IMG/VR virus record: IMGVR_UViG_3300021509_000003
Length of the DNA: 40,145 nt
Strand: one strand, 5' to 3'
Source: a virus
Part shown: piece by piece, positions 4,466 to 37,762 of the stretch
How positions within the stretch are numbered: the first letter of the stretch is position 1
How the letters are laid out: each line of letters begins with the position of its first letter
Notes under the pieces: generated by a model
Database searches by the model: none
What the model saw: the letters and a program-made list of their open reading frames with translations, nothing else
Told to the model about the DNA's origin: nothing
Translations under genes and position numbers: made by a program

Positions 4466-4482
4466 TTGAAACCCGCAAAATG

Positions 4483-4519
4483 CCTGCCCGACGGCAGGCG
4501 GGCCTGCCCGCAGACGGGC
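4483..4519 (-). terminator. Two tandem GC-rich hairpins immediately 3' of gene 4519-5271
   Basis: cctgcccgacggcagg (4483-4498, 6-bp stem) and gcccg-caga-cgggc (4506-4519); a short U-tract follows on the minus-strand RNA. Confidence 0.5.
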
Positions 4520-5321: not shown

Positions 5322-6335
5322 CTATGGAACATAAATCCCTCCTTGTGTCTGCTTCCAAGGCACTTTCGTGTATATCATGCTATGTGGCAAGCCTCTTAAC
5401 ATGCGGTAGACTGGACTGCGATACATATTTTCACGGATTTCATCCGATGACCACGCACGGTTTTCAATAACAAGAGCAGCAATCAGGCCCTTAAAAGGGT
5501 ATTTAACAGTATGCAAAACATTTGCACCAACGAAGAGCTGTCTTTCGCTATTATCAATAGTATGTGGACCAATATTCAAACTTGCCTCTTCCAACCCATC
5601 TAAATAAACTTTCATATATGCCCCGTCATAAATCGCTGTAACATATATCAATCTCCCTTTAGGCAAAGTATATTCAACTCTTTTATATCCATCAGGATAA
5701 CCTAACCCATCAATATATAAAGAGAAATATTTTGTTACTAAATCATAATCCCCATCACCGTAAGAAGGCCTGTATTTACATACTATGTGACCTCTATCAA
5801 CTTGAGATATTACCCACACCCCTATTGTAATTCGATTAACAACAGCTAAGCTTGTGTCATCTCCGCAATCTACATAGCCACTATCTCCATCAATCTCAAA
5901 TCCCATTACCCCAGGGGTAACCATATATGGCCTTGCACCACCATGAGGCACACCGTGATTGCCGCTTCCTGACAAGTCAACCCACCCACTAGACCTACAA
6001 TCCAGTGGGTAGCATGATAAGTCCAAAACAGATTGTTTTTTACTCACTTTTTCAACTCCTATTACACCATTATTCACAATTACCTGCCAAATATCGCCAG
6101 CGAGGTCCCGAAGATAAAATTGCGTATCTGGCTGTGCTGTGGTATCCGCTAGAACCAGACGGCCATTGTCGATAGAAAGCACCCATGTAGTTGTTCCATC
6201 TTTATCGTTTATGACTGGATTAGATTCACTTTCAGCCTCCGTGTTTTCCTCTAGTTGCAGCTTGCCATTGATAACTTTCAGTTTCCAGTATTGTTCAACT
6301 GCTGCATCTTCTAGAGGATAATATTCCTTTATCAA
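5322..6335 (-). CDS. LamG/concanavalin-A-like lectin-fold domain protein
   Basis: C-terminal FKGLIAALVIENRAWSSDEIRENMY matches the LamG signature; upstream GD/ITIGVWV beta-sandwich pattern. Confidence 0.5.
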   Translation of the reverse strand: MIKEYYPLEDAAVEQYWKLKVINGKLQLEENTEAESESNPVINDKDGTTTWVLSIDNGRLVLADTTAQPDTQFYLRDLAGDIWQVIVNNGVIGVEKVSKKQSVLDLSCYPLDCRSSGWVDLSGSGNHGVPHGGARPYMVTPGVMGFEIDGDSGYVDCGDDTSLAVVNRITIGVWVISQVDRGHIVCKYRPSYGDGDYDLVTKYFSLYIDGLGYPDGYKRVEYTLPKGRLIYVTAIYDGAYMKVYLDGLEEASLNIGPHTIDNSERQLFVGANVLHTVKYPFKGLIAALVIENRAWSSDEIRENMYRSPVYRMLRGLPHSMIYTKVPWKQTQGGIYVP

Positions 6336-7825
6336 TTATTGCTCCTTCCTATTTCCACCCATCTATCTTCGACATAAACTAAGCTTAAAGTATCGTTTTG
6401 ACCCATGACAAAATCACCTGCCAATTCACTCACCCCTGCTGTATCGCTGAAATTGCATACATTAGCAGAAACATTCACAATCGTAACAACCGTTCCGTCT
6501 ATCACATCTGCCTCCCCCATAATAATGTCACAGCCATCTGCATCATTGCAGATTAACTTCACAGAGCTGGTTGAAGGAGTAAGAGTATAAGAAGCAGGAT
6601 TAGCATCGCCTGAGTCTGTAACAGTAACTTCGTCTGGGGACGAGCCGATGACTCCATTTACCTCTATACTCCTCAATTTTCTTCTGGTTGCAAAGTGGAC
6701 TAACGCCTCCCTCAATGTCACAACTTTAATACCTCTTTCCCTTGCCCAGTCGATAGTGTTTGCAATTCTCTCTTCAGTTAAAGTAGAGAGATTAGCATGA
6801 CCATACAACAAGCCAAGCTCGTTATTTGTGGCTATGGTATCCAGAAAATTTTGAAGCTCCGAATCACTCAGTTTGTCAGTTTCAAAACTTTTTCGAGGCA
6901 GGGCATAAAGCTCGTCAGTCCCAATAGGAAAAGAAACCCTTCCATCACCACCCTTACAAGCAGCCCTGTAAAAATGCGAGACCCAAACTCTCGCCTCTGG
7001 ATTCTCGCTATTGTAAGGATAAACAAAAGCTCCTATCCTCAAATCCATCTCAGACAAAATCCTTTTGGACTCATATAGCTCCTTGTATGCATAGTCCTCA
7101 TGAATCTTCAGAACTGCACCATCCGATACTTGATACGAATTCGCAAGCCCATTTTCAATCGTAACATAATTACCGTTGTCATCTGACCCTGTCCCAGTTA
7201 CCGTTACATTTTCAGGCCCTGCGTTGTCGTCCCAGACTCTGTAGACGTATCCAACTTTGATGGGGCTAAGATACTCTATATAGAGTTTGGTATCTCCTGT
7301 GTTCGCATCTTGGGTCAAATCAGTAGAATAGAAGGCAAGATGATTTAAGCCATGGCTCGCAATTTCCCAGCCCGCATCTTGCATCTCCCGCAGCTGATGA
7401 GGTAATATTCCTGACGGGCCTTCCATTCCATTGATGTTTATTGCTGCCACTGCAGGAACACCTTTCTCCTGGTGAATAGGATAAGCTTTCGTCCAGGTAG
7501 CCCTGACAGCGTCATCATAAACGATAACAAGCATAGGTCTTACCGAAAAATTCCCCAAGTTACAACACAAATCATTTATCAGCACTGAAGAATTTGAAAG
7601 AGAAAGTCGTTTCCATTCCGACGCACTGTTGCACAAGCCATCAGCAGTATCGCAGACGTATAAAACTTTATCGTCTTCTTCGTAACATAAATCACCTGCT
7701 CTACCATCTGTAATAGATGTGCAATCTGTCGTATGTGTTCTATAACGCCAAAAATACCAAGTGGCTGCACTAATAGATGTAACTAGAAACAGGATAAGAA
7801 TCAGTAAAGATAAAATTTTTTTCAT
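6332..7825 (-). CDS. Secreted polysaccharide deacetylase (CE4/NodB-homology domain) with Cys-rich N-region and C-terminal extension
   Basis: Signal/TM segment MKKILSLLILILFLVTSISA. NodB motifs IVYDDA (DD), ASHGLNH (HxxxH), VYPYNSE (xPY). Confidence 0.6.
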   Translation of the reverse strand: MKKILSLLILILFLVTSISAATWYFWRYRTHTTDCTSITDGRAGDLCYEEDDKVLYVCDTADGLCNSASEWKRLSLSNSSVLINDLCCNLGNFSVRPMLVIVYDDAVRATWTKAYPIHQEKGVPAVAAININGMEGPSGILPHQLREMQDAGWEIASHGLNHLAFYSTDLTQDANTGDTKLYIEYLSPIKVGYVYRVWDDNAGPENVTVTGTGSDDNGNYVTIENGLANSYQVSDGAVLKIHEDYAYKELYESKRILSEMDLRIGAFVYPYNSENPEARVWVSHFYRAACKGGDGRVSFPIGTDELYALPRKSFETDKLSDSELQNFLDTIATNNELGLLYGHANLSTLTEERIANTIDWARERGIKVVTLREALVHFATRRKLRSIEVNGVIGSSPDEVTVTDSGDANPASYTLTPSTSSVKLICNDADGCDIIMGEADVIDGTVVTIVNVSANVCNFSDTAGVSELAGDFVMGQNDTLSLVYVEDRWVEIGRSNN

Positions 7826-7837
7826 TTCAAAACTCCA

Positions 7838-8476
7838 TTATTGCAAAAATATTTGCATAAAACTGTCAAAACTACCTCTTGAAAGATATAGTCTGACTTC
7901 GCCTTTCTCAGTGGTAGCAATTTTGTTGTATATTTGAACTCTCAAAGCAAGTCTTTCAGTTGCAGCAATCTCAAATCCATTTGTTAAATTTAAAAACGCT
8001 AGCCCAGAGCATTTTTGATATGTAGTTGAATTAGTAGAAAAATTAGGCGTGGCTTCTCCATTTACTTTGCTTGTAAAATTGTCTGAAGCATCCATTATTC
8101 CTAAGTTGAAAACACCTTTTGTCCAATAGACGTCCCCCTCCGTACTACCAGTTCGAACAATTCCAACGCAGCAGATACAAGGAATAATCTGAGCTGGAAC
8201 TATTATTTTTCTTGGAACAGATAAGGCTAAAACAAAGGTTTTATCTATTTTTAAAGTTTCATCAGTTTCTGTAATTTCTGCTTCCTCATAATCTAAAGCA
8301 CAACTCTCTGGATTTTCTAAGTCTGATGGATTAGGGGTAGTCTTTAAAATGTAGCTTTGCCCATCTCCAAAAGGCCACTTATCATTGACCTTTTGAAGAC
8401 AAAATATTTTAAATGGAGAATCTATTTTAAATGCTTCTCCATCAAAAACTTTTCTTAATATTTCCACAGTTATCAT
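7838..8476 (-). CDS. Hypothetical virion structural protein (neck/tail region)
   Basis: 212-aa ORF in the head-tail joining region. Confidence 0.35.
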   Translation of the reverse strand: MITVEILRKVFDGEAFKIDSPFKIFCLQKVNDKWPFGDGQSYILKTTPNPSDLENPESCALDYEEAEITETDETLKIDKTFVLALSVPRKIIVPAQIIPCICCVGIVRTGSTEGDVYWTKGVFNLGIMDASDNFTSKVNGEATPNFSTNSTTYQKCSGLAFLNLTNGFEIAATERLALRVQIYNKIATTEKGEVRLYLSRGSFDSFMQIFLQ

Positions 8477-8949
8477 GTTCTTCTATCCTCCCTTATTTTT
8501 ATTTCCGCAGTCAGTAAATTCAGGAAAGTCGGATATTTTCGCAAGGTTAAATCTTCATCTACGCTAATGGTGCTGATTTCTTTAAAGAAAATAGGAGCCT
8601 CAACGGATTTAGAAATTTCCTGTCTAATTAACTGCCCTAAATGGTCTATCTCAAATTCTCCATTGTATTTTTTACCTTTGTCATCATTTTGGATATCGGT
8701 TTGAAAAATACACAGGAAAATAAAAATTTCATAATCAATTAGACGTTGCTCATTTTGTTCGTTCACTGTTCCTGTCTTCCATCCTAACAAGGCAAAAGGA
8801 CAATTTGATGTTTCAGGCAAATCATTTACATCTGCTCCTAAAAATACTTTTATGGGTTTGTTATAATAAAGTTGGCAAAAATCATCTATCAACTGGCTGT
8901 TTATTATTTGCGTTCTAATGTCATCTAAAATTTGTGTTATTCTTTTCAT
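8473..8949 (-). CDS. Hypothetical neck/tail-completion protein
   Basis: 158-aa ORF, 4-nt overlaps with both neighbours. Confidence 0.35.
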   Translation of the reverse strand: MKRITQILDDIRTQIINSQLIDDFCQLYYNKPIKVFLGADVNDLPETSNCPFALLGWKTGTVNEQNEQRLIDYEIFIFLCIFQTDIQNDDKGKKYNGEFEIDHLGQLIRQEISKSVEAPIFFKEISTISVDEDLTLRKYPTFLNLLTAEIKIREDRRT

Positions 8950-9281
8950 GTCCTGGGTCTTTCTCTCCTCTCACAGCTTAATTCCCAAATACCCATATTT
9001 TCTTTGCGGGCTAAAACTTCCCATTGCTTGGCCTGAGCATCTTCTATAAAATCATGGTTCTGTGGTTCGTTTAATCCAGCTTGGTCTAGGTCTTCTTTTT
9101 TTACCCAAATTTCAGCTTGTTCAGCAGTGGCAAGTTCTGCATCTGCATCTAATTCACGTTCAAAAATAACAGCAGTGAGAGATGTTGGAACACCGTCCCG
9201 AATATAAGAAACTGTTTGAGCTAATTCATTAGTATTAAAAAAAACAGCTATGTCTTGTTGTATTACATTTTGCAAACTCAT
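8946..9281 (-). CDS. Putative head-tail adaptor/connector protein
   Basis: 111-aa acidic ORF; call is by size and position only. Confidence 0.3.
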   Translation of the reverse strand: MSLQNVIQQDIAVFFNTNELAQTVSYIRDGVPTSLTAVIFERELDADAELATAEQAEIWVKKEDLDQAGLNEPQNHDFIEDAQAKQWEVLARKENMGIWELSCERRERPRT

Positions 9282-9562
9282 TGCCGTATCATAAAAAATA
9301 ATATCAAGTTAATTAAACCTCCGCCTGCTGTGCCTAAAAGAGCCGCTACAGCATAAACAATAGCTAGTCTTATCTCTACTTTCCGCAGACGTTTTTCTAT
9401 ATCGCCAATTTCATTTCTATTTTCTATAAAACGTACACTAGTATTTTCTAACTGCCCTTCTATCCGGCTAATTTTCACTATTAATTGCTCCTGGCCGTTC
9501 TTTAAATAACGAATATCCTCAGCTAATTGCTTGAGATAATCTTCAGAAAGATCCGGGGGCAT
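9278..9562 (-). CDS. XhlA-like small membrane protein (N-terminal coiled coil, C-terminal TM helix)
   Basis: Coiled-coil heptads then IVYAVAALLGTAGGGLINLILFFMI. ATG at 9560-9562; the track start at 9568 is a TTG two codons upstream. Confidence 0.45.
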   Translation of the reverse strand: MPPDLSEDYLKQLAEDIRYLKNGQEQLIVKISRIEGQLENTSVRFIENRNEIGDIEKRLRKVEIRLAIVYAVAALLGTAGGGLINLILFFMIRQ

Positions 9563-9583
9563 AAACAACCTCTCTTGCCTATC

Positions 9584-9637
9584 CCCGCCTGCCTGTCCCC
9601 GCCTGCCGTCGGGCAGGGGCAGACAGGCCTGCCTGTC
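9584..9637 (-). repeat. Composite GC-rich palindromic element between 9640-9999 and the next gene
   Basis: Contains cctgccgtcgggcagg (9602-9617) nested in a longer imperfect inverted repeat; same architecture as 36704-36752. Confidence 0.6.
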
Positions 9638-9639
9638 AG

Positions 9640-9999
9640 TTATGCCAGCATAACTTCTATCTCTGTAGTAGCACCAGCAGCTACTGTGCCCATTGCATAG
9701 CCAAAAAGAATGCCATTTGTAGCGTCTTTATTAATCTCGTCTCCATCTTTATATAGCTTATCCCAACGGGCAACGGCGCTATTGCCAGCGTCATCCTTTC
9801 CTGTAACATTCAATTTTACGACCACAGCATCACGGACAATTACTGTTGCCCCGCCATCATCATCTCTATCAGTCAAAGCAATTGCTGGAATTTCTGCTTT
9901 ATCTTCTCCTAATATAATAGGGTCTCCACTGTTCACACCTTCTGCAACAGAAGGTTCATAAAAAGTTGTGCCTTGTCCAAAGCTTATATTTTTTGCCAT
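9640..9999 (-). CDS. Putative capsid decoration/accessory head protein
   Basis: 119-aa Gly/Ala/Asp-rich ORF directly after the capsid gene, followed by a strong hairpin element. Confidence 0.3.
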   Translation of the reverse strand: MAKNISFGQGTTFYEPSVAEGVNSGDPIILGEDKAEIPAIALTDRDDDGGATVIVRDAVVVKLNVTGKDDAGNSAVARWDKLYKDGDEINKDATNGILFGYAMGTVAAGATTEIEVMLA

Positions 10000-10032
10000 T
10001 TTTTTATGCCTCCTTTTTCAATTTGTAAGGTT

Positions 10033-12390
10033 TTAAGCACCTGGATTCTTATATAAAGCTTTCCAGCTTATGGCTTTTGCGCCTGCTTCAATCCTTACCT
10101 TAAATTCTACGCCATCAACATGCCAGCCTTCCTTTTGTTCAAGAGTAGGGGCCTGTTTCCCATCCAGGAAGAAAATAGTTACAGTCTTTCCTTTTGGTCC
10201 AGCCACATACCAAGCAGTGCCAGCATCATCTAAGCGTCCATCACTAATAACCTTTAAGTTGTATTTACGAAGAATATTAGGTTTGGCCGATACTTTCCCA
10301 CCAGTAGTAGAAAAATCTACATATTGCATGCCAAGCAATTCTTCTACATCCATTCCATCTTCAATACGGACAATTATAAATTGTGGTCTAATGTGAAGTC
10401 TGCGTTTACCGCCAATGTCTTTTTGTTTAAGCATAGCTTTTATGGCTGCTTTAATGGTATCTGTGCTTGGGGCTGCCCCGGCGCCGGCTAAGTTACCATG
10501 ACTAGAATGAAAAAGTGCCACACCATCGCCCATAGTTGGGTTTGTGGTCAAAACTTTATACGCTAAATCGGCTATTTTTCGCCTGGCTGCTGCACCCATT
10601 TCCTTTGGGATTCCAGTTAAGGCATTTAAATCATCATTTATGATTGTTTGTCTTGTGATAGAGAAAAGCTTGCCATAGGTGGCAATTGAATACTTCTCTT
10701 GCTGTTCGCTAACCGTGCCATATTTGTATTCTGCCCCTTCTGGAATTTTATCCAGGTCATCAAATTCACCTGGGCGAACCAGTTTATTTTCTTTAAAATC
10801 GCTAACAGAACCTACACCGCACCATTCACGCCAAGTTTCTGGTTCTTCTTCAAAGCCCTGCATTAAGGCCTTGTTGGCTACATTTTGAAGGATAAGAGGA
10901 AAATCAGAGGAAGTGTGTGTAAAAGCACGTGCTACCATGTCCATTTTGCTTAAGCCTCTACATGGAATATTTGACCTGATAAGACACTCTCTAGCTATTT
11001 CTACCAGAGGACGGTTAGCAAAATCCTCAGCCCCGCTATCTTTAACCTCTTCAGCAGAGACAAAACCAACTCTTAAAAGCAATCCATTCTGAACGGCCCT
11101 ATTAAATTTATCTTTTTCATCCTTACCTGTTACAGGTTCACCAGTTTCCATCCTTCCAACTGGAGTATTTCTTTCAGCCAGTTTTTGAAGAATTAAATCT
11201 TTTGCCCTTTCCACGGTGTATTTTTGCTCAATCATCTCATCCATCAACTTCTCATCAATATTATGCATTTTGCAAAGAGACCTAATCTCCATTACTCGCT
11301 TGCGTTCTGCTTCTTCTCCTTTTTTCCTTGCTTCCTCTATCTCTTTTTGTATTTCTTCAGGATTTTTAATTTCTTCTTTTCTTTTTTCTTCTGCCATTGT
11401 TTTATCCTCCTTTTTATTTTCTTGTCCGACTGTTCGACCCACACCTACCGAGGCATCGGCAGGCACAGGAGTTAAAGAAAACTCAAAAACACTCCATCTT
11501 TGCGCTATGTATGCAGGCCCCTTAAATCCATTCCATTGCTCTTTTTCTTGCAGTTTGAGCCATTTATGAACTTGATATCCAACTGAAACGCCCCGTAATG
11601 TCTGATCTTTAATTTCTTGATATGCTTCCAGGGCCTTTTGTGTAGTGCCAAACTGAATTATGGCACGGCCTTTTTTGTCCTCTTCATCAAGCCAAATTTT
11701 TAAAGGTTTGGCCACTCTTTGATTTGGGTCATGATTTATCAAAATGCTGCCAACTTCTTTTATCGGTTTAAAATTAATAGCGTCTTTTGTATGAAGTAAG
11801 ATTTCTTTTCCATACCAGCGTTCTACTGGCTCTTCTGAGCTAAAGCTCACTTCTACAATGCGGTTTTCATCATCCAGGATGCCACGCATTTCACAAGGAA
11901 AAGTGCGCCGCATTCTGGCGTCAGTAGGAGGGAGGTCTCTTTCATCTTCACTAGTAGGAAGATATGAGTCAGCCTCAAAAGTATCTAGTTGTTTTTCAAC
12001 ATTTTTTTTAAGAGCTGGAGGTTCTTTCCCAAATTTTTCATAATATTTCACGATATGCTTATATACATCTTCTCTATCTTTATCTGGTATGTTTACTCCT
12101 TTCCTAGCCCCATTTAATACCTGCATAGCTAATCTAACGCCATGCCAAACAGCTTGTAATTCATCATTAATTACATCAGCAAATTTTAATTTATAACCTT
12201 GAAATTCTTGCTCATGTTCTGAATCATACCAAAAAAATGCCTTTCTAAATTTTTTCCAATCGATTTTATCTTTATCACCAGACCCATCGCTACTTGCCCA
12301 CTTCCGCACATTTTTTTCAGCTTCATCATGATGATATGGACGCTCTAAATCCTCACATATAGATAAATTAACAAATGGTGTTACCGGCAT
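10033..12390 (-). CDS. Fused prohead protease (HK97/S78-like) + coiled-coil scaffold + major capsid protein (HK97 fold, Mu gpT-like)
   Basis: Protease motifs INHD, LRGVSVGYQ, FEFSLTPVPADASVG; Glu/Lys-rich coiled coil in the middle; capsid-like motifs ALFHSSHGNL and RLHIRPQFIIV. One uninterrupted 785-aa frame with GGAGG RBS. Confidence 0.7.
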   Translation of the reverse strand: MPVTPFVNLSICEDLERPYHHDEAEKNVRKWASSDGSGDKDKIDWKKFRKAFFWYDSEHEQEFQGYKLKFADVINDELQAVWHGVRLAMQVLNGARKGVNIPDKDREDVYKHIVKYYEKFGKEPPALKKNVEKQLDTFEADSYLPTSEDERDLPPTDARMRRTFPCEMRGILDDENRIVEVSFSSEEPVERWYGKEILLHTKDAINFKPIKEVGSILINHDPNQRVAKPLKIWLDEEDKKGRAIIQFGTTQKALEAYQEIKDQTLRGVSVGYQVHKWLKLQEKEQWNGFKGPAYIAQRWSVFEFSLTPVPADASVGVGRTVGQENKKEDKTMAEEKRKEEIKNPEEIQKEIEEARKKGEEAERKRVMEIRSLCKMHNIDEKLMDEMIEQKYTVERAKDLILQKLAERNTPVGRMETGEPVTGKDEKDKFNRAVQNGLLLRVGFVSAEEVKDSGAEDFANRPLVEIARECLIRSNIPCRGLSKMDMVARAFTHTSSDFPLILQNVANKALMQGFEEEPETWREWCGVGSVSDFKENKLVRPGEFDDLDKIPEGAEYKYGTVSEQQEKYSIATYGKLFSITRQTIINDDLNALTGIPKEMGAAARRKIADLAYKVLTTNPTMGDGVALFHSSHGNLAGAGAAPSTDTIKAAIKAMLKQKDIGGKRRLHIRPQFIIVRIEDGMDVEELLGMQYVDFSTTGGKVSAKPNILRKYNLKVISDGRLDDAGTAWYVAGPKGKTVTIFFLDGKQAPTLEQKEGWHVDGVEFKVRIEAGAKAISWKALYKNPGA

Positions 12391-14174
12391 ATTATTCCCT
12401 CCCGCCTGCCTGTTTGCTCAACAGATAAGCCTACCTGCCTGTTCGGCAGATAGGTCTGTCCAATAGGCAAGCTATTTTTAGCCTTTTTTTCTTCTTGAGC
12501 CTTTGCCCAATTTTTGACCCATTGTTTGGCCTGGCTCACTGTCCATTTATCTTTATCAAAAATAAAAGAAATAATTTTTTTACAATCTATACAGTAACGG
12601 GCTTGTATTCCCTTTTTTTCACTGATTGTGATAGTGCGAATTTCATGACCTTTATGTTTTCCCTCTTCTCCAGGAACCGGCACATGAATTTTATTTTCTG
12701 TTACTTCAACTCGAGTTTGAATATCCTGAAATTTTACTTGCATTTGTGATATATCAGTGAGACCTAAATCATTTAAATATTGTTTTTCTTTTGCTCTTTG
12801 ATTGGCTATTTCTTGCCAATCTTTACCTTTAACAGCACATTCATCCGCCAAGCTAGTTAAACCAAGTTGCAGTTCTAACTTCTTTGCCTGAGCTTCTTTC
12901 AATGGGTCAACCCAATCAAAACCTTTGAAAATCCAGCGGTGTTTCAGCCAATTTTCAGGAGCCTTAATAAATCCCTGAACCTGCAAATAGCCGCTCACGA
13001 TGCCATATTTCACAAAGTCTTCCCAGATAGGTTGGAGAAAATATCTTTCAAGTGCTTTCCGGAATGGAAGCATATAATCCCGCAGTTCTAATTCACTATG
13101 CCGAGTAGAAGAATAATTTACATCTGATTTATCACCACTTATTTGTTCATATGAAAGATTTACGCCTCGGCCCATGCCCCGCAAAATAATTTTTACAAAA
13201 TCTGGGAAAGTGCTGCCTGGACGTTTAGGATTGATAACTTCTATTTCTTCTCCTGGGCCAAGATGTTCTACCATTCCAGGAGCTATCTCTATTTCTCTTT
13301 CTTTTGTTTCTGTATTTTGAGTGCTAGTTTGCATGCGTCCCCATATATCAGATGTCTTTATAATTATTCCAAAACAGGCAGCTACTTTGGCAGACATTAG
13401 TTCTGCTTCTAAAAGTTCTGAAAGGTGATAAGCGAGGGGAATAACAGGAGCTAAAAGTGGAATGCCCATCAATTGTCCAGGACGGCGAAAAGGAGAAAAG
13501 TGAATAATATCTTGGGCAGGAATGCGAATGGATTGTTGTTTCAAAATGAATGGATTAGAAATATCTACTTTCCAGAAATGATAAGCAACTATTTTACCTG
13601 TTTGGTCTATCTCAAAACCATTCCAGTTCCAATTATCCTTTTTAGGCGTGCCCATACCACATAAACGGCTATATTCCAGTGCTTCAAGACAAAAAGGGAA
13701 ATCTCTGGATTTATCTATAACTTTGTGGAAAAAAATGCCTCCATCTAAAAATAATTTTAAAATTGCCAGCCGTTCCAGGTCTCCAAAATGAAATTGGTCG
13801 TAATAATCGGCTACTCGTGCCCACTGTTTAAATACATTCTCAGCCTTAGAATTAAATTGTTCGTTATCTGTGAGAGCCTGTGGTGTGCTGCCTCCACCAA
13901 TCATGCGGTTAACAATCAGGTCGATACTGCCACGAACAAAAGATTCATTCCAATATAGATAATTGGCTCTAGCTCTGACTGTTTGCAGGTCTGAGAAATT
14001 ATCATTTGGACCTTCTGCGCTGGTAGTCCAATATGAAGACATGCGGTCTTTAGAAGCAGCTTTTAAATGCCTGCGAACTACTTTTTGAAGATATTCCCGC
14101 TTTGCCTTCCATTTTGGGAAAGCTGCCCAAAAAAAGGCGTCCAGGGCTTTTGAAATGGATTTTAAAATGTTCAT
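12381..14174 (-). CDS. Portal protein, lambda gpB family
   Basis: LSYEQISGDKS... and VKGKDWQEIANQRAKE align with lambda gpB VSYEQLSRNY... and KRGDDYQEIFAQQVRE. Follows a gpW-like gene with ATGA overlap. Confidence 0.85.
   Translation of the reverse strand: MNILKSISKALDAFFWAAFPKWKAKREYLQKVVRRHLKAASKDRMSSYWTTSAEGPNDNFSDLQTVRARANYLYWNESFVRGSIDLIVNRMIGGGSTPQALTDNEQFNSKAENVFKQWARVADYYDQFHFGDLERLAILKLFLDGGIFFHKVIDKSRDFPFCLEALEYSRLCGMGTPKKDNWNWNGFEIDQTGKIVAYHFWKVDISNPFILKQQSIRIPAQDIIHFSPFRRPGQLMGIPLLAPVIPLAYHLSELLEAELMSAKVAACFGIIIKTSDIWGRMQTSTQNTETKEREIEIAPGMVEHLGPGEEIEVINPKRPGSTFPDFVKIILRGMGRGVNLSYEQISGDKSDVNYSSTRHSELELRDYMLPFRKALERYFLQPIWEDFVKYGIVSGYLQVQGFIKAPENWLKHRWIFKGFDWVDPLKEAQAKKLELQLGLTSLADECAVKGKDWQEIANQRAKEKQYLNDLGLTDISQMQVKFQDIQTRVEVTENKIHVPVPGEEGKHKGHEIRTITISEKKGIQARYCIDCKKIISFIFDKDKWTVSQAKQWVKNWAKAQEEKKAKNSLPIGQTYLPNRQVGLSVEQTGRREGIICR
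12401..12460 (-). repeat. GC-rich palindromic element at the portal/capsid junction
   Basis: gcctgcctgtt (12404-12414) and cctgcctgttcggcag (12434-12449); lies in the 3' tail of the portal ORF and upstream of the capsid RBS. Confidence 0.55.
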
Positions 14175-14392
14175 AATGATGGAGAATATTTGGAAAATGT
14201 TCTTGTCTTATAATTCAAGAGCATGCGGTCATATTGTGCTTGCAACTGACGCCGTTCAGCATACAGAACCGCAAGGTCCGCTTTTCTGACTCGCCTGTCG
14301 CCTAAATCGTATGATTGAGCGCCATTTTCAATAGCTTCTATAGCTGCCTCAACAGCCTCTAGGCGCTCCTGAACGGTTTTGATATTTGCCAT
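14171..14392 (-). CDS. gpW-like head-tail joining protein
   Basis: 73-aa protein with the helical ERLEAVEAAIEAIENG...GDRRVRKADLAVL pattern of lambda gpW, directly upstream of the portal as in lambda. Confidence 0.5.
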   Translation of the reverse strand: MANIKTVQERLEAVEAAIEAIENGAQSYDLGDRRVRKADLAVLYAERRQLQAQYDRMLLNYKTRTFSKYSPSL

Positions 14393-14412
14393 ATTTTATA
14401 TATGGCAAAAAA

Positions 14413-14470
14413 AGGCAGAAAATACCCGCAAAAAATGCAAACTTTTTAAAAAATGCAGAAAATGCAAAAA
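14413..14470 (-). promoter_or_regulatory. A-tract plus TGCA repeat cluster upstream of the gpW-like gene
   Basis: AAAATGCA-like motif at about 14415, 14432, 14450 and 14459; reads as phased TTTGCATTTT on the minus strand. No SD in front of the ATG. Confidence 0.35.
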
Positions 14471-14481
14471 AAGAAAACTAA

Positions 14482-14802
14482 TTATTGGTTGCCGGTTGGT
14501 AGGTGAGAACAAGTATAAAAGGCAAAAATAGTATATTGCTTCCAGCGTTTTAAATCAGGATTGGCAGCAAGAGCATCAATAAGAGCTTGCATTTCACTTT
14601 CATTTTCCATTTCATCGTAAATATGCTCCCAAATAATTCCCTGTTCTGTTTTTCTTTTTTGGAGAGATAAAACAAGGGTCTGCCCCTGATAAATGTCATA
14701 TTTCATAACATCTTTATTAATATACATAGGTTTTAAATTTTGCAAGATTAATTTATTTATAAACTCATCATCAGGACATAATTCCTTTTTTTTATAGATC
14801 AT
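14482..14802 (-). CDS. Hypothetical protein
   Basis: 106-aa ORF in the small-gene island between large terminase and gpW. Confidence 0.4.
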   Translation of the reverse strand: MIYKKKELCPDDEFINKLILQNLKPMYINKDVMKYDIYQGQTLVLSLQKRKTEQGIIWEHIYDEMENESEMQALIDALAANPDLKRWKQYTIFAFYTCSHLPTGNQ

Positions 14803-14816
14803 ATTTCTTCACCAAT

Positions 14817-15035
14817 TTACTTATCTTCTATCTTCTCTATCTCACTTAACAATAAATAATATTTATCCCCATTTTGTAGTTGCACTTTTACTTGCTTAGG
14901 TCTTTCATTGGTATATGTTGATATTATTATGGCTTGTTGTCCACATATCTCAAGTCCTTTGGTATAAAAATTTGCCAAAATTCTTACCTTATCACCTACT
15001 CGTGGAAATTCTTGCAACTTTAGCTTTTCACTCAT
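14817..15035 (-). CDS. Hypothetical small protein
   Basis: 72-aa ORF. Confidence 0.4.
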   Translation of the reverse strand: MSEKLKLQEFPRVGDKVRILANFYTKGLEICGQQAIIISTYTNERPKQVKVQLQNGDKYYLLLSEIEKIEDK

Positions 15036-15044
15036 TATATTTCC

Positions 15045-15278
15045 TTACCACTTAAATGCATTTTCTATTATTCTCACTCTTGTCAGCAGTTTAGAATAAT
15101 CCTCTTTAAACAAATCTACTGCCTCTTGACTCATTAGGAAGCGATTTAATCTTTCTACATCTTCTAATCTAATAGAGCTACGCACAAGACTAATGGTTGA
15201 ATGAACCTGTCCTGCAATATGCAACCAATATTCTTTATCTGGATTTATTTTGTCTGCCGTTCTAGATTTAATGGACAT
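15045..15278 (-). CDS. Hypothetical small protein
   Basis: 77-aa ORF. Confidence 0.4.
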   Translation of the reverse strand: MSIKSRTADKINPDKEYWLHIAGQVHSTISLVRSSIRLEDVERLNRFLMSQEAVDLFKEDYSKLLTRVRIIENAFKW

Positions 15279-15458
15279 TTATCCCTCTATATTTTGTTTT
15301 AAAAAATTTTCTAAGCTTTTTTTAACGACATATCTTCTTTTGCCGATGCGGATTTCTTGTATTTTCCCTGTATCAAGCCAATCGTAAATTGTCCTAACGC
15401 TTCGCTGTAATTGTCTAGCTGCAATGCTCACTTCTAATAGTTCACCATTTTTAAGCAT
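15279..15458 (-). CDS. Excisionase/MerR-like HTH DNA-binding protein
   Basis: LEVSIAARQLQRSVRTIYDWLDTGKIQEIRIGKRRYVVKKSLENFL is typical of Xis-type HTH domains. Trimmed to ATG at 15456-15458; the longer track ORF overlaps the terminase 3' end. Confidence 0.5.
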   Translation of the reverse strand: MLKNGELLEVSIAARQLQRSVRTIYDWLDTGKIQEIRIGKRRYVVKKSLENFLKQNIEG

Positions 15459-15475
15459 TTTAATAATCTCATCTA

Positions 15476-17317
15476 TTATCGAAGCCACCCTGGCCTCCTG
15501 GACAACCAAGAATTTTTTAAATGGCGTCTTTGTTGTTGAATTATCTGTTGTGTCTGTTGTGGTGGAGATTCTGTTATAATAGGTTGTAAATATCGCACTT
15601 GAAGATGGTCCGCAGCACAAAAAGCATATACAGAAGCGTCTAAATAGTGATTTTGAGTTGCTACTTGCACCCACTCCTCATAATACCGCAACCCTTTTCT
15701 AATTCTTCTCTTTTCCTCAGCTATTATTTGAGTTGCGTAATCCATACCAGTAGCTTTGTGTAAATTCCAACTGCCTGATTGTCCACTTTCTATTTGAAGT
15801 TTTCTATTGATAGCATCTTTATAATAATCGGTGTTAATCAGAATAAGGCGTAATCCGCCGGGAATAGGTTTATTTTTACCTGGATATTTATCAATAATGC
15901 TTTCACGAAAAGGCACGCCACTCGTTTTAGTGCTCATGCCTTTGATTGCATATACAATACCTCTCCCATTGCGGCGCACCCATTCATAAACTTCATCTGT
16001 GCGATGACCACCGCTGTCAATAAAAGCACGCATAATAGGAATAGTTTTATCGTCCAAACGGTAGGCAGAATAAAACAAAATAAGTTCAAGTTCTTCCCAA
16101 TTATGGGCGAATCCATATCTAATCATCCATGTGGTTAAATCTAAATCATTAGCCCAGGCATGGATGACATAATAAAAACCATCTTCTTGAGTATCTACCC
16201 CAGCAGTGAGAGCCACAGCTTGTGGTGGAACTACTCCAGGGTCAAGATTTCCTCGCAAGCATAAAATTTCTTCTTCTTTACGTTTTTCTATAACTTCTTT
16301 CCAAGGCTCTGCTAAACGACTATTTACAAAATCCATCAGAAGAGCTGGATCATCTTTTGCTTCCAAAAATTCAGCCGCAATTTCTCCCCAAGTAACAAAA
16401 GGAGAATATAAACCAGATAAATGAAATCCTACCTTCCTTCTTTTTGTTGATTTTTCTTCTACAATTTCCCATTTTCCTTGGGTCAACATTTCTTGTTTTT
16501 CACTTTCTTTTATATGCGCATGACATTTTTCACATTCATACCAGGCAATATCTCGAATAATTTCAGGGTCCTTCTCTTCTTTAGGCCACTTAATGTTTTG
16601 AAATTGCAAAAATTGGTATTCTCCACAATATGGACAGGGAACAGCATAACGATATATCACATTACAAGATTGTAATTGCCTCCAAATATTCCCTGTCTCA
16701 AGAGTAGGTGTACTCGTATAAATAATTTTTTTAAAACTTTTAGTATATGTGCTGGTTCTTTTTTTTGCTAAAGCAATTGGGTCGGCTTCTTTGCCAGAAA
16801 ATGGTGGATATTTATCTATTTCATCTAAGATTAGATAGCGTATAGGACGTGAAGATAAAACAGCCGGGGAATTTGACCAGCCTAAAAAAACTGTCATAGA
16901 TTGAAATTTCATTTCTAAAAGCTGGAAGTCAAAAGCGTTTGGAGTTTTCCTATCTCGCAGAACACTACAAGCATCTATACTTGGCTGTAATCTATTTCTA
17001 GAAAAACCCTCTGCTACATCTTGAGTAGGAAAGACAAAAAGAAGTGGACCAGGGTCTTGATGTATAACATATCCAATAAAATTAATTTCTGCTTCTGTTT
17101 TCCCTAATTGAGCAGCGGCGCAAAATACAATTTCTTCTACTTCTATATCGCAAAAAGTATCCATAATAGTACGTAAATATGGAGTTCTTTCTGTTCTCCA
17201 AGGACCTGGCTCTTTTGATGATCTAGGCACAAGCACACGATAGCGGTCAGCCCATTCACTTACTGTGATACCTTCAGGCAATTGAAGAACTCTTTTTTCT
17301 CGTTCAGTCAAATTCAT
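15476..17317 (-). CDS. Terminase large subunit, lambda gpA family
   Basis: Blocks shared with lambda gpA: VSEWAD, CPYCGEYQFLQF...YECEKCHAHI (gpA ACPHCGEEQYLKF...YLCEHNAC), LYSPFVTW (gpA YSPFTTW), LDASVYAFCAA (gpA LDCFVYALAA). Confidence 0.9.
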   Translation of the reverse strand: MNLTEREKRVLQLPEGITVSEWADRYRVLVPRSSKEPGPWRTERTPYLRTIMDTFCDIEVEEIVFCAAAQLGKTEAEINFIGYVIHQDPGPLLFVFPTQDVAEGFSRNRLQPSIDACSVLRDRKTPNAFDFQLLEMKFQSMTVFLGWSNSPAVLSSRPIRYLILDEIDKYPPFSGKEADPIALAKKRTSTYTKSFKKIIYTSTPTLETGNIWRQLQSCNVIYRYAVPCPYCGEYQFLQFQNIKWPKEEKDPEIIRDIAWYECEKCHAHIKESEKQEMLTQGKWEIVEEKSTKRRKVGFHLSGLYSPFVTWGEIAAEFLEAKDDPALLMDFVNSRLAEPWKEVIEKRKEEEILCLRGNLDPGVVPPQAVALTAGVDTQEDGFYYVIHAWANDLDLTTWMIRYGFAHNWEELELILFYSAYRLDDKTIPIMRAFIDSGGHRTDEVYEWVRRNGRGIVYAIKGMSTKTSGVPFRESIIDKYPGKNKPIPGGLRLILINTDYYKDAINRKLQIESGQSGSWNLHKATGMDYATQIIAEEKRRIRKGLRYYEEWVQVATQNHYLDASVYAFCAADHLQVRYLQPIITESPPQQTQQIIQQQRRHLKNSWLSRRPGWLR

Positions 17318-17319
17318 TT

Positions 17320-17922
17320 CTATCTAATCTTGCCTTTTACTTCCACCACAATTTTTTTATATTTTTTTGTAGGTAATGCCTGTATTTTTTGCCAAAACTG
17401 CGATAAAGCTTCTTCCTGTAGATGTATTGGTAAATTATCAGTTATAACAGGTATATATTTACCTTCTCGACAATAACTTTGTAATAACTCTAATACCTCT
17501 TTTTTAAGAATTTGACGCACTATTGGTATAGTTTTTCCACTCTTATCAGCCAAAATTGTGGCTAAGCGAAACTCAAGTGCAAGTAAACTTTGTTTAAATT
17601 CACTTGCACGGGTAGCCCATTCCATTTCTATTTTTTCACGCTCAACATATTTACCCCTTAATGCTTCAAGCTCCAGTTTTTCTTTTTCTAACTTAATCAA
17701 ATTGAGAGCATCTTTTATTTTTGAACTATCAGCTCGTTTTTTAATACCAAAGTTTTCTTCAAAACAGCGAATTATATCAGGCAAGTAATATTTACTCCCA
17801 TCCTGCCTAATCTTTTGCCTCCATTTACCAAGCCAATCCCGGATAGTGCGGTCAGAACGATTAAAAGCAAGAGCAAGTTGCGGCACAGTTAGAAAAAGAC
17901 TTTTAAATAATCTTGCCACCAT
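17320..17922 (-). CDS. Putative terminase small subunit
   Basis: N-terminal HTH LTVPQLALAFNRSDRTIRDWL, then coiled coil; ends 3 nt before the large terminase start. Confidence 0.5.
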   Translation of the reverse strand: MVARLFKSLFLTVPQLALAFNRSDRTIRDWLGKWRQKIRQDGSKYYLPDIIRCFEENFGIKKRADSSKIKDALNLIKLEKEKLELEALRGKYVEREKIEMEWATRASEFKQSLLALEFRLATILADKSGKTIPIVRQILKKEVLELLQSYCREGKYIPVITDNLPIHLQEEALSQFWQKIQALPTKKYKKIVVEVKGKIR

Positions 17923-18471
17923 TTATTTCTCCCATTTAAATCCACATTTTGGACATTGAATAAAATTCTTCTTTTTTTCTTCTTTTTCTTCTTGTCTTTT
18001 TTCATTTTCTTTATTCTTATCTAAAACTTCATCTACAAAATAAGTATTATAAAAATTTTCAAAATCAAAATCAGGAATAGATAATTGGAGAAGTAATTTA
18101 TCTATATCAACATCATGTTCATAGATAAATTTATATAATCCCTCATCAGATATCTTTCCAAAACAACTATTTAAAAGAAGCAACTTTTCAGCCGCTTCCT
18201 GTTCATTGGCCGCTTCAATTTCCACAACTGGAATTTTGTCAATTGTGTAGCCTTCTTCAAGAAGCTTGCGCACAATAAAAAGCCGTTGGTGACCATCCAA
18301 AATATTGTTTTGCCAAACAAAAACAGGAAAGCTAAATCCATAGTCCAAAATAGCCTGCTTCAATTTTTTAAACTCTTCTTCGCCAAGTTCTTTAAGATTG
18401 CCTTGAAAATCTTTAAGTTTATTTATGGGAATATATTTTTGACTTTTACATGTAATCTTAATTTTTTTCAT
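17923..18471 (-). CDS. ParB N-terminal (nuclease-like) domain protein with C-terminal zinc ribbon
   Basis: ParB/Srx-type motif ILDGHQRL; C-terminal CPKCGFKW. Confidence 0.55.
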   Translation of the reverse strand: MKKIKITCKSQKYIPINKLKDFQGNLKELGEEEFKKLKQAILDYGFSFPVFVWQNNILDGHQRLFIVRKLLEEGYTIDKIPVVEIEAANEQEAAEKLLLLNSCFGKISDEGLYKFIYEHDVDIDKLLLQLSIPDFDFENFYNTYFVDEVLDKNKENEKRQEEKEEKKKNFIQCPKCGFKWEK

Positions 18472-20780: not shown

Positions 20781-21667
20781 TTTTTCTCGTCTCCTAAAGA
20801 AACTAACGAAGATTTATTTTTTTCTAAAAATGCTATTTTTTCTCTTAATTTTTCAGCTTCTTCTTTGTAGCCTGAATCATATGAATATTTTTCCAACATT
20901 TTCAGCCTTTGCCTCATTGCTTCAATTTTAGCCTCAGAACTTATTTTTGATTTGGTAGGAGGTGATTTATTATTTTTTCTCTTAATCCAGTTTAGTAAAG
21001 TAGCATAATGTGATTTATATTTTTTTCCTTTACTTGCTATATACGCACCTAACTCTTCTATTGCCTCATCAACTATTTGTTTATCAAAACGAGATTGCAA
21101 TTTTTGATATTCTTTTTCAGTTAATTTTACATTTTTAAATTCAGATAAATATAAGCAAGCGTGAGAATCCATGCTTGCGTCAGGTTTTTGTCCTTCAAAA
21201 TCTTCTGAAAGGCTTTTTTCTTCTTTCTTTTTTATTTCTTTCTTCTTTTTATATTTAACTTTAACTTCTACTTTAATATTCCAAAGGGTTTGGCAATGCT
21301 TTAAAAGCCTTTGAAAGCCTTTGAAAGCCTTTATACTATCTGGGGCTTCTTCAAGCTCTTTTTTTACTGCCTTAATCATATTAGGATTAAGGCTTTGATA
21401 TTTAGGATAATTAGGCAAAATAATAAATCCTTCATAATAAAAAACTTTTTCATCTTTCTCAAATCTTTTGATAATTTTTAAAATCATTTCTTTATCTATA
21501 CCTGTATCAAATGCGATGCGTTTTAAAGAAATTTCATAAAAACCACTAATGCGACTTAACGGATTGGTGAGAAAATATAAAAAAAGCAATTTCTCAATAG
21601 GGTCTAAATTAACTATATAATTATCATCCCAAAAATGAGATGATACATATCTTTTTACATAGCTCAT
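20777..21667 (-). CDS. Putative replication initiation/replisome organiser protein (DnaD-like)
   Basis: N-terminal winged-helix-like region LLFLYFLTNPLSRISGFYEISLKRIAFDTGI and Lys-rich linker; contains internal 10-bp tandem repeats. Confidence 0.45.
   Translation of the reverse strand: MSYVKRYVSSHFWDDNYIVNLDPIEKLLFLYFLTNPLSRISGFYEISLKRIAFDTGIDKEMILKIIKRFEKDEKVFYYEGFIILPNYPKYQSLNPNMIKAVKKELEEAPDSIKAFKGFQRLLKHCQTLWNIKVEVKVKYKKKKEIKKKEEKSLSEDFEGQKPDASMDSHACLYLSEFKNVKLTEKEYQKLQSRFDKQIVDEAIEELGAYIASKGKKYKSHYATLLNWIKRKNNKSPPTKSKISSEAKIEAMRQRLKMLEKYSYDSGYKEEAEKLREKIAFLEKNKSSLVSLGDEKK
21304..21333. repeat. Three tandem 10-bp repeats (aaagcctttg) inside the replication gene; iteron-like origin candidate
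   Basis: aaagcctttg x2 then aaagccttta, read directly. Confidence 0.6.
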
Positions 21668-22717: not shown

Positions 22718-22731
22718 TTCTACTTTTTTAG

Positions 22732-22817
22732 CGGAGGGGGCAGGATTTGAACCTGCAGAGTTTTTAAAAACTCGTGGTTCTCAAGACCACTGCTTTAAAC
22801 CACTCGGCCACCCCTCC
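22732..22817 (-). tRNA. tRNA-Ser (anticodon UGA), type II with long variable arm; CCA not encoded
   Basis: Manual fold: acceptor GGAGGGG/CCCCTCC, anticodon stem GTGGT/ACCAC with loop CTTGAGA, variable arm GAGTTTTTAAAAACTC, T-arm GCAGG-TTCAAAT-CCTGC, discriminator G. D-stem is weak (GCC/AGC). Confidence 0.8.
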
Positions 22818-24988: not shown

Positions 24989-26014
24989 TTACCCTGTGGG
25001 TCTTTTTAGTTTTTTAATTGCATTAATTAAATGTTCTTTTGTTAAATGTGAATAAATAAGTGTAGTAGATATATCACTATGCCCTAAAAGTTCTTGCACT
25101 GTTCTTAAATCCACCCCCGCCATGATAAGTTTGCTAGCAAAAGTATGTCTAAGACAATGTAAAGTGTAACCTTCAAGACCTGCTTGTTTAAACCAGGTAG
25201 AGAATTTTTTACTTACATATTTAGGGTCAAAACTTTTAAATATTTTGCCAATTTTAATAACTTCCGGATCATTATTCATTTCTTGGATAATTTCTTTCAA
25301 TTCAGAACTAATTGGTACATATCTTATTTTCTTGGTTTTGGTTTTTCTAAAAAGGATAAAACCATCTTTTATGTCTTGCCAATTAAGATTAAGCACTTCG
25401 TTTCTTCTGGCTCCTGTATTTAGATAAAATTCAAATAGCCAACGCCATTGTGTGTCTTTGATTTGCTTTCTCACAGCATTTATTTGTTTATCTGTAAGAA
25501 ATTTAAGCGGTTTTTCCTGGATTGATAGTTGTTTATAACCTGATAATTGATTATACTTTAAATATCCCCATTCAACTGCTTTTGAAAAAGCAGCCTTTAT
25601 GGTGCGGATGTCTATATTACATGTAGCTCTGGATTGGCCTTGTTTAAGCCTCATGTTAACTAATTTATCTAAATGTTTCTTATTGATTGCTTTAATATCT
25701 AAATTGCCAGTAATCTGTCTGAGTAATCTAAAAGCATTCTGAGCAATACGATAGCTGGCTTCAGATAAATATTTTTCAATATAGTCAAGATATTCTTGAA
25801 CAAAATCGTCTAGTCTAACAGTTCTTTCAAGAAGGCTAAGTTTTCTTAATAAATATTCCCTTTTTGCTTTGGTGAAAATAACCTGGGCCTCAGCTTTATT
25901 TTTTGTGCCGAGGCTTTTTTTCCGCCGTCGGCCATTCTCAGACCAATAAATATACCATACGCCATTGTCTCTCTTTTTTAGGCGCATGATTATGCTTAGC
26001 CTATCAGGAATCAT
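24989..26014 (-). CDS. int: Tyrosine site-specific integrase
   Basis: C-terminal catalytic region HCLRHTFASKLIMAGVDLRTVQELLGHSDISTTLIYSHL with the R...HxxR...Y signature. Confidence 0.9.
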   Translation of the reverse strand: MIPDRLSIIMRLKKRDNGVWYIYWSENGRRRKKSLGTKNKAEAQVIFTKAKREYLLRKLSLLERTVRLDDFVQEYLDYIEKYLSEASYRIAQNAFRLLRQITGNLDIKAINKKHLDKLVNMRLKQGQSRATCNIDIRTIKAAFSKAVEWGYLKYNQLSGYKQLSIQEKPLKFLTDKQINAVRKQIKDTQWRWLFEFYLNTGARRNEVLNLNWQDIKDGFILFRKTKTKKIRYVPISSELKEIIQEMNNDPEVIKIGKIFKSFDPKYVSKKFSTWFKQAGLEGYTLHCLRHTFASKLIMAGVDLRTVQELLGHSDISTTLIYSHLTKEHLINAIKKLKRPTG

Positions 26015-37708: not shown

Positions 37709-37720
37709 TTTAATCCTCCC

Positions 37721-37760: not shown

Positions 37761-37762
37761 AG

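Follow-up and report, generated by a model that had tools for sequence, protein, structure and literature searches.

The locus between the large terminase and gpW

The window analysed here is the whole 40,145-nucleotide viral DNA of IMG/VR record IMGVR_UViG_3300021509_000003. In its lambda-type head module, the gene for the large terminase (TerL) is separated from those for a gpW-like head–tail adaptor and the portal by four small open reading frames (ORFs) and a spacer, an arrangement pointed out in an earlier note on this DNA and present as described there. TerL is followed by a gene for a small protein with an HTH_17 helix-turn-helix (HTH) domain, by three ORFs encoding 77, 72 and 106 amino acids (aa) (o77, o72 and o106), and by a T-rich spacer that ends at gpW. 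All genes around the interval are on the minus strand, and coordinates are collected in Table 1.

The earlier note took the small genes for a possible moron, such as a regulator with a toxin or anti-defence partner, and the repeats in the spacer for a late-promoter activator site or bent DNA related to packaging; this interpretation is supported only in part by what follows. We read the interval as three layers, namely a resident HTH_17 gene, a slot for exchangeable cargo, and a T-rich spacer on the gpW side that would act as a control region. We give this composite reading a probability of about 0.55.

Gene content of the slot in related phages

We compared the interval with graded relatives (contigs carrying L numbers) gathered by TerL-based scans. 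The synteny comparison suggested in the earlier note shows that the four genes are not a conserved core packaging set, because relatives lack the island or carry other genes in its place. In L007 (TerL 57%, portal 52% and gpW 48–51% identical), the order is TerS, TerL, a 150-bp spacer, gpW and portal, with no island. In Paenibacillus phage Pd_22F (TerL 42%) gpW begins 6 bp after TerL, and in L018 the two genes abut; we conclude that an insertion separates them in the window. Across about 20 relatives the gap from TerL to gpW or portal ranges from 0 to >2.5 kb and has unrelated contents, among them a GIY-YIG-like protein, zinc-ribbon ORFs, and an HTH protein with a 315-aa protein. Three kinds of content occur among phages 94–100% identical in TerL, and a fourth in a 77% relative; thus the window, L001, L047 and L044 differ in the slot while their TerL proteins are 77–100% and their gpW proteins 92–100% identical.

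L001 and L005 are 99.8% identical to the window over ParB, TerS, TerL and the HTH gene. Both lack o77, whose first codons are fused to the body of o72, and both have a 406-bp insert, which comprises a perfect TTGACA-17-TATAAT promoter and a palindrome, followed by a strong Shine–Dalgarno (SD) sequence and an 84-aa ORF, for which Pfam and PADLOC gave no homologue in L001. The 17-bp spacer of the L001 promoter is itself the palindrome, TTATAACGCAaaTGCGTTATAA (L001 3556–3690). To judge from this layout, the L001 insert looks like a self-contained, operator-controlled moron. A consensus scan of the window cargo (14482–15278) found no convincing promoter or terminator of its own.

L044–L046 are about 79% identical to the window in TerL DNA and 90% in the head genes (gpW of L044, 92%). 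They have the HTH gene, a broken o77, an 88-aa ORF, a 178-aa AAA_28 protein, a Cys-rich 72-aa protein (Cys72), an internally deleted o72 and an o106 core truncated by a stop codon. L047 represents a further type, with 159-aa and 67-aa ORFs, another HTH gene and a UPF0150/HicB-like gene, and L048, a 99% twin, has an island of the window type. Differing combinations, truncations, fusions and a promoter-bearing insert indicate that the slot turns over by recombination at gene boundaries.

Other cargo was seen in passing. In L006 (TerL 70%) an overlapping pair follows the HTH gene (2636–3371); one ORF is 90 aa long, and the other encodes 158 aa with a DTGAS motif and weak matches to retropepsin-like aspartyl proteases. 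Small zinc-ribbon proteins (CPxCG...CxxCG, NrdR/Ogr-like by eye) lie at the TerL–gpW junction of L020 (7974–8252), L023 (7974–8249) and L028 (7949–8146), and the same junction in L041 (7786–8553) encodes a 255-aa protein with a GIY-YIG-like motif.

By their distribution, o77, o72 and o106 are evidently dispensable accessory genes, some of them decaying, and not core packaging genes. The moron idea therefore holds for these three, which are absent in L007 and Pd_22F and differ among near-identical phages; it fails for the HTH gene, as set out below.

The cargo ORFs

o77 has 61 homologues at 64–86% identity. Its AlphaFold2 model is a predicted three-helix bundle (predicted local distance difference test score, pLDDT, 88) for which a fold search returned no PDB neighbour with E <3. 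The protein matches nothing in Pfam or PHROGs, where o72 and o106 give sub-threshold matches only. o77 is absent from L001 and L047 and broken in L044. For o72 there are six homologues, and its model is a small SH3/KOW-like beta-barrel (pLDDT 75; Foldseek, PetP 2e-3 and YorP 1e-2), a fold so generic that it gives no function. L001 and L047 have an o72 with another N-terminus, and that of L044 is internally deleted.

o106 has only three matches among 5.8e9 proteins, all near-identical. HMMER against 1.84e9 representatives also gave three, of which the informative one is 43% identical over residues 33–86 and another, an 835-aa protein, is dubious. The conserved core starts at Met33 (14706) and extends for about 55–70 aa, whereas the N-terminal 32 aa are confined to the window type (the window and its twin L048). 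In L001 the homologue starts at an internal Met and ends in a zinc-ribbon-like CxxC...C...C tail that is lost in the window, and in L044 a stop codon cuts the core. Given the near-absence of relatives and the alignment with L001, we regard the 106-aa ORF as a chimera formed around this core. A terminator-like hairpin, CAGGGGCAGACCCTTG followed by TTTTAT, lies within the conserved o106 core (14673–14688, minus strand) and is found in all variants.

The toxin or anti-defence partner once imagined here left no trace: Pfam, PHROGs, PADLOC and the fold search revealed no toxin, antitoxin or anti-defence signature in the window ORFs, and PADLOC, run on these and on the variant cargo, reported nothing for o77, o72 or o106.

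Parts of the cargo are common to unrelated phages, which share a module of o77, the 88-aa ORF, AAA_28, Cys72 and o72. In contigs that we call donor-type (L049–L056, 58–82 kb, with a P22-type portal) the order is o77, (71-aa/88-aa ORF), AAA_28, (Cys72), o72 and an Amidase_3 endolysin gene, o72 lying directly upstream of the latter in L052–L055. o77 and o72 thus mark the left and right ends of the module; set against this gene order, L044 carries most of the module, and the window has kept both ends and lost the middle. o77 and o72 are, on their gene order, remnants of a module exchanged with unrelated phages.

Two features of the donor-type contigs may be recorded here. In one lineage, seen in L049 (JGI 3300021495 Ga0190352_1000003, 82.5 kb; 6232–10027) and also in L050 and L051, genes with Pfam matches to Csf1 and Csf3 (type IV CRISPR-Cas) and a PAPS reductase gene are inserted after o77 and before the AAA_28 homologue. 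The o77 homologue of L052 (JGI 3300033141 Ga0366833_1000781, 58 kb) is assigned by NCBI to a metagenome-assembled genome of 'Candidatus Heimdallarchaeaceae archaeon'; its P22-type portal and Amidase_3 endolysin suggest that L052 is probably a bacterial phage binned into an archaeal genome.

The terminase-linked HTH_17 gene

The likelier start of the HTH_17 gene is GTG at 15488, with AGGAGG (15499–15494) 5 nt upstream, and yields a 69-aa product; the ATG at 15458 used in the earlier note would give 59 aa. The longer ORF overlaps the TerL stop by 13 nt, and the L047 copy is called at the same size. The domain occupies residues 23–66 (Pfam HTH_17, 4e-9 to 5e-9). Compared with the PDB, the family profile matches Pukovnik Xis (3.6e-4), BldC (6ama/6amk; E 0.1, a marginal value), lambda Xis (0.15) and the gpNu1 DNA-binding domain (0.35), with RacA matched weakly; PADLOC adds a weak mad1/MTase HTH-type match and nothing more.

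A homologue lies directly after TerL in L001, L044, L047, L048 and L006, within the island in L013 (TerL 53%), and just upstream of TerS in L007. Of the five lineages whose TerL is at least 53% identical, four thus have the gene next to those for the terminase, and on this synteny the HTH_17 gene is a conserved resident rather than cargo. The assignment to an Xis-type family, made in the earlier note, is borne out by Pfam and the PDB profile; its inclusion among the cargo is not.

An Xis-like protein in a phage with a tyrosine integrase might simply be an excisionase in an unusual place, which would make the interval 'Xis plus morons' and leave HTH protein and spacer unconnected. Its family fits this idea: it is a small winged helix of the HTH_17/Xis family whose best PHROG is 'excisionase and transcriptional regulator' and whose best PDB relative is Pukovnik Xis. 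The gene is not beside the integrase, however, but 9.5 kb away, it has stayed with the terminase genes in four of the five lineages from 53 to 100% TerL identity, and the 9-mer of the spacer (below) occurs nowhere near the integrase. A second HTH_17-like ORF (68 aa, 27605–27811, minus strand; Pfam E 8.5e-5, below the gathering score) belongs to an operon that ends with the integrase. This ORF appears the more conventional and better excisionase candidate, which makes such a role unlikely for the terminase-linked copy, and we consider the excisionase explanation quite improbable.

A T-rich spacer with direct repeats

The spacer is 56% T on the coding strand, compared with 28% for the genome, and 53% of its bases lie in A/T tracts of at least 4 nt, a value that reaches at most 26% in any other intergenic region. 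Within it, AAAATGCA occurs three times (14432, 14450 and 14459; spacings 18 and 9), out of nine occurrences in the whole window. The minus-strand 9-mer TTTT[CT]TGC[ACG] has five matches on that strand in 40 kb, all within 14404–14471: the units are at 14471–14463, 14462–14454, 14435–14427, 14422–14414 and 14412–14404, spaced by 9, 27, 13 and 10 bp. A degenerate copy, AAGTTTGCA (14444–14436), fills the 27-bp gap, which then becomes 18 + 9. Tandem Repeats Finder (TRF) describes the spacer as period 9 (4.9 copies, 65% matches, score 46) plus a period-10 piece, so that the repeat period is 9–10 bp and not 10.5. The repeats reported in the earlier note are real and unique in the genome; their TGCA part is not kept in L044, which is about 90% identical here. 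Rfam has nothing in the region.

The curvature prediction called for in the earlier note was made with a wedge model in 100-bp windows, using provisional parameters, and gave the spacer a predicted bend of about 91 degrees, within the top 0.8% of windows. The strongest curvature predicted in the genome by the same model lies elsewhere, at 17311–17590 (100–116 degrees per 100 bp), covering the 3' part of terS and the terS/terL junction, and could be relevant to recognition of the packaging site.

Conservation of the spacer is partial. Compared with L001, variable DNA gives way to conserved DNA at 14469/14470, where the array has its distal edge; this places the spacer on the conserved side, travelling with gpW. 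In L044 the T-tracts are kept and a 35-nt core, TTTTTTAAAAAGTTTGCATTTTTTGCGGGTATTTT, is unchanged.

Repeat arrays before gpW in other lineages

Direct-repeat arrays stand at the same position before gpW in two other lineages. L007 has nine 10-bp units, nnTCATTAAG (TCATTAAG x 9), with a TRF score of 109, the top of the locus (P<0.003), and L035/L036 have eight GGTATTT(C/T) units (GGTATTTC x 8) at 8- and 16-bp spacing (P<0.003). The two arrays are unrelated in sequence and lack A-tracts; what recurs is therefore a direct-repeat array and not curvature as such. A scan of viral contigs for TCATTA arrays of the L007 type returned unrelated matches only, including giant-virus contigs, and the L007 portal has no close viral relatives. 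We also considered the units as 'anti-start' sequences, since TTTGCC in the window and GGTCAT in L007 complement the gpW start; the L035 unit lacks such complementarity, and we rejected the idea.

Sites of the pac and cosB kinds typically contain bent repeat arrays, and the array of the window lies near the terminase genes. It could on these grounds be a packaging recognition site for the small terminase, which has an N-terminal HTH, or for the HTH_17 protein as a relative of gpNu1, in keeping with the weak profile match. The positions of contig ends argue otherwise. Five independent contigs of one relative group start 550–573 bp upstream of TerL, and L004, L011, L016 and L035 start 620–690 bp upstream of it, which fits a terminus upstream of TerS, as in lambda; L035 has such an end as well as an array before gpW. 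Furthermore, the array is downstream of TerL, whereas such a site would be expected ahead of the small terminase gene; a GC-rich cosN-like element is missing beside it, and the strongest curvature of the window is in terS and not in the spacer. A packaging role for the repeats, one of those suggested in the earlier note, is thus disfavoured, and we regard it as very unlikely.

The gpW start

The earlier observation that gpW has no SD is confirmed: its anti-SD duplex energy is +1.4 kcal/mol, compared with a genome median of –5.8. Energies of –4 or better are found for 62% of the phage genes, and 9 of 55 are as bare as gpW. A perfect 10-bp inverted repeat, TTTGCCATAT-N5-ATATGGCAAA, spans the start, and the corresponding RNA hairpin, with the gpW AUG in its 3' arm, has a predicted energy of –11.3 kcal/mol (z –3.3). 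The L044 version folds with –9.0 kcal/mol (z –3.8) in spite of three substitutions across both arms, all of which pair as G–U and reduce the DNA palindrome to 7 of 10 matches. We estimate the chance of three compatible changes out of three at roughly P 0.02–0.04. G–U-compatible changes in a degraded DNA palindrome modestly favour a role at the RNA level.

Hairpins of this kind are predicted elsewhere too. In L035 (2895–2937) one occludes the gpW start region (–23 kcal/mol, z –3.5), and in L013 (8577–8608) a 12-bp hairpin occludes the gpW SD (–21.5 kcal/mol, z –3.2); no occluding hairpin was predicted in L007, L020, Pd_22F or Epona. Phages in which gpW is uncoupled from TerL may repeatedly hide its initiation region.

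A gpW mRNA with no leader, or a very short one, would also explain the missing SD. The curved spacer would then be a UP-like element of an internal late promoter that needs no dedicated binding protein. Consistent with this, the predicted bend is among the highest in the genome, it is the T-tracts and not the GCA cores that are conserved, the ATG is directly preceded by TATATAAAAT, and in L007 TAAAAT stands 4 nt before the ATG. Such a transcript would lack the 5' arm of the hairpin, as in T4 gene e, and ahead of gpW in L020 and L023 there is a terminator and then TTGACA. Nevertheless, a scan of the spacer for sigma-70 promoters and intrinsic terminators stayed at background level and produced none that fits, with no –35/–10 pair, so that the late-promoter activator site suggested in the earlier note finds no support in a sigma-70 promoter there. 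The best –10-like hexamer, TAAAAT, would put the transcription start inside codons 2–3. Moreover, the arrays of L007 and L035, having no A-tracts, do not share the curvature, and the bend itself depends on the provisional wedge parameters. We consider a UP-like element unlikely.

Weighing the control-region reading

A number of observations weigh against a spacer that controls the head genes through a dedicated binder. One is the scan result just described. The repeat count is significant against mononucleotide shuffles (P<0.01), but against a first-order Markov model of the spacer composition it gives P=0.08 for 8-mers with up to one mismatch and P=0.26 for 9-mers with up to two. The extreme T-richness thus makes the count marginal, and the robust feature is the T-tract-rich spacer, the TGCA repeat being weaker. 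Tract periodicity is only in the top 1–7%, with a Fourier amplitude in the top 2.5% at 10.5 bp; tract density is high, and the spacing of 9–10 bp is interrupted by gaps of 13 and 27. Of the six GCA/GCC cores, four are mutated in L044, where the spacer has diverged as much as the coding DNA around it (about 10%); constraint is thus evident at most in the 35-nt core and the hairpin. In most relatives an identified gpW is not preceded by an array, and none was found in L013 or FP_Epona. Arrays and HTH genes do not coincide regularly either: L035 has an array without a detectable HTH_17 gene, L013 the HTH gene without an array, and L014 (TerL 53%) gave no HTH homologue in a hidden Markov model search. 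As for the cargo layer, its base composition is not distinct (31–34% G+C compared with 36% for the genome).

Some of these points, namely the repeat count given local composition, the decay of the GCA cores at about the divergence of the flanks, and the lack of arrays in most relatives, would be expected if the T-rich spacer were a functionless, low-complexity, AT-biased scar at a recombination junction. The repeats would then be a by-product of T-runs, and gpW would be translated inefficiently or by re-initiation. Yet the spacer far exceeds every other intergenic region of the phage in T-richness, the 35-nt core has survived unchanged in L044 (a chance of about 2.5% at 10% divergence), the hairpin is preserved through three compatible changes, and highly significant arrays occupy the same position in two other lineages. 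We regard a scar as a doubtful explanation and retain the control region as the preferred one.

A possible mechanism

We infer by analogy both what would bind the spacer and how binding would affect transcription and translation. By default gpW would abut TerL, as in lambda, Pd_22F and L018, and a control region would precede gpW where cargo or a spacer intervenes. This region would restart or gate the expression of the genes beyond the cargo, namely gpW, portal and capsid, with the hairpin silencing gpW on read-through transcripts in the manner of T4 gene e or I-TevI. The phased T-rich 9-bp units would provide a bent platform on which a small protein could bind head-to-tail, 14404–14471 being the predicted candidate array for BldC-like binding, and the adjacent 69-aa HTH_17 protein would be the most plausible binder, given the parallels of BldC, lambda Xis and D29 Gp36. 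It is plausible that this protein tunes late or structural gene expression.

In its most specific form, the proposal would be that, throughout this clade of GpA-terminase phages, a terminase-linked BldC/Xis-like protein polymerises on the short-period array before gpW and, together with the hairpin, forms a switch between packaging/cargo and head expression. Array sequences would on this proposal be replaced between lineages (T4YTGCM x 5–6 in the window, TCATTAAG x 9 and GGTATTTC x 8) while position and architecture are kept. We advance this switch only tentatively, as a speculative extension of the control-region reading.

Implications

The small-gene interval adds one more accessory-gene hotspot of a familiar type to those of phages, with a putative control spacer beside it. 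Several natural variants document the TerL–gpW junction of lambda-type modules as a cargo slot, and a defined gene block has been exchanged between two unrelated phage groups. Given their status as cargo, the island ORFs should not be annotated as packaging genes. The slot may be of use in mining for accessory or counter-defence genes, the donor-type slot between o77 and o72 being the one that holds the Csf1/Csf3 Pfam matches.

Phage genome and gene order

The window is a closed phage genome: identical 127-bp ends (1–127 and 40019–40145) give a circle of 40,018 bp, and a tape-measure ORF of 697 aa is continuous over the junction (1–587 with 38512–40145). With a tyrosine integrase (24989–26014), a CI-like repressor (plus strand), a CII-like regulator and a DnaD-like replisome organiser, the phage is, by gene content, temperate. 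Membership of gpW in its family is borne out by the PHROG match and by its position directly upstream of the portal gene, whose start overlaps the gpW stop (ATGA, 14171–14174); Pfam gave no match for gpW. A protease–capsid fusion comes next after the portal. DNA of the region matched none of 50,697 phage records, and thus no cultured phage; the HTH_17 and o77 proteins matched none of these records either, and TerL scans of genome contigs revealed no prophage relative.

Table 1. Features of the terminase–head region of the window
Feature	Position	Strand	Remarks
ParB-like	17923–18471	–	
TerS	17320–17922	–	N-terminal HTH (Pfam/PHROGs)
TerL, GpA (lambda) type; conserved upstream flank	15476–17317	–	Pfam GpA_ATPase 6e-72, GpA_nuclease 4e-64; phrog_15
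HTH_17 protein, 69 aa	15279–15488	–	between TerL and o77
o77, 77 aa, cargo	15045–15278	–	
o72, 72 aa, cargo	14817–15035	–	
o106, 106 aa, lineage-restricted chimeric ORF	14482–14802	–	
T-rich spacer, 89 bp; candidate control region for head genes	14393–14481	–	
10-bp inverted repeat over gpW start	14385–14409	–	
gpW-like head–tail adaptor; conserved downstream flank	14171–14392	–	phrog_118 6e-10
Portal, lambda family	12381–14174	–	Pfam Phage_portal_2 2e-79

Some further features lie outside the interval. The phage encodes a tRNA-Ser (anticodon TGA) at 22731–22817 on the minus strand. The gene for the DnaD-like replisome organiser holds several tandem repeats (21213–21332), including CTTTGAAAGC x 3.4 at 95% identity, which are a probable replication origin. 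Intergenic DNA at 9569–9639, 4466–4518 and 37709–37762, as well as the leaders of several late genes, is 59–72% G+C compared with 36% for the genome; two of these G+C-rich intergenic regions contain hairpins and repeats of GGCAGGC/ACAGGCAGGCGGGGA, and the same G-rich motif (CAGGCAGGCGGGGAGG) is also found upstream of the capsid gene start and of several tail genes.

Comparison with known systems

Among known hotspots of this kind are the morons of HK97 and lambda and the old/tin and Z/fun loci of P2. As in the moron or hypervariability hotspots described for phages (bioRxiv 10.1101/2024.10.15.618418), dispensable genes lie between core genes, their content differs among near-identical phages, part of the cargo is common to unrelated phages, and the L001 variant has its own consensus promoter. 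Unlike in such hotspots, the slot is between TerL and gpW, inside the packaging–head operon, and the window cargo has no convincing promoter or terminator, compositional contrast, or recognisable defence or virulence function.

The gene order resembles Nu1-A-W-B of lambda, with a GpA-type TerL, a gpW-like gene and a lambda-family portal in sequence, and with gpW and portal overlapping by stop and start. The lambda W gene overlaps the end of A, whereas here about 1.08 kb separate TerL from gpW, which has neither coupling nor an SD. The gpW hairpin recalls T4 gene e, where a hairpin is combined with late promoters (PMC3014915). As in gene e and I-TevI, the start codon of a late gene that follows genes under other control lies within a stable hairpin; we found no late promoter inside the hairpin of the window, however, and phage type and host are unrelated.

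For the HTH protein, the nearest functional parallels are the Xis-type regulators D29 Gp36, a repressor of phage genes that acts on direct repeats (PMC12266134), 186 Apl and P2 Cox, with which it shares the small Xis/MerR-like phage HTH and direct repeats as a likely target. Those genes lie near an integrase or switch region, whereas the window gene abuts TerL and a separate HTH_17-like ORF is in the integrase operon. BldC of Streptomyces, a protein of 68 aa, binds head-to-tail on 9-bp direct repeats AATTxxxx(C), variable in number, and bends the DNA (PMC5859096). The window differs in that the similarity is at E 0.1, the array lies about 0.8 kb downstream of the HTH gene, its unit is T4YTGCM and not AATTxxxxC, and binding is a candidate property. 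In common with BldC are the size of the HTH protein (69 aa), its MerR-like winged HTH free of coiled-coil, dimerisation or effector domains, and a 9-bp unit of variable copy number in which an AT-rich tract is followed by a G/C element; if the link between HTH protein and array is real, a filament regulator of the BldC type would join the known controls of phage late genes.

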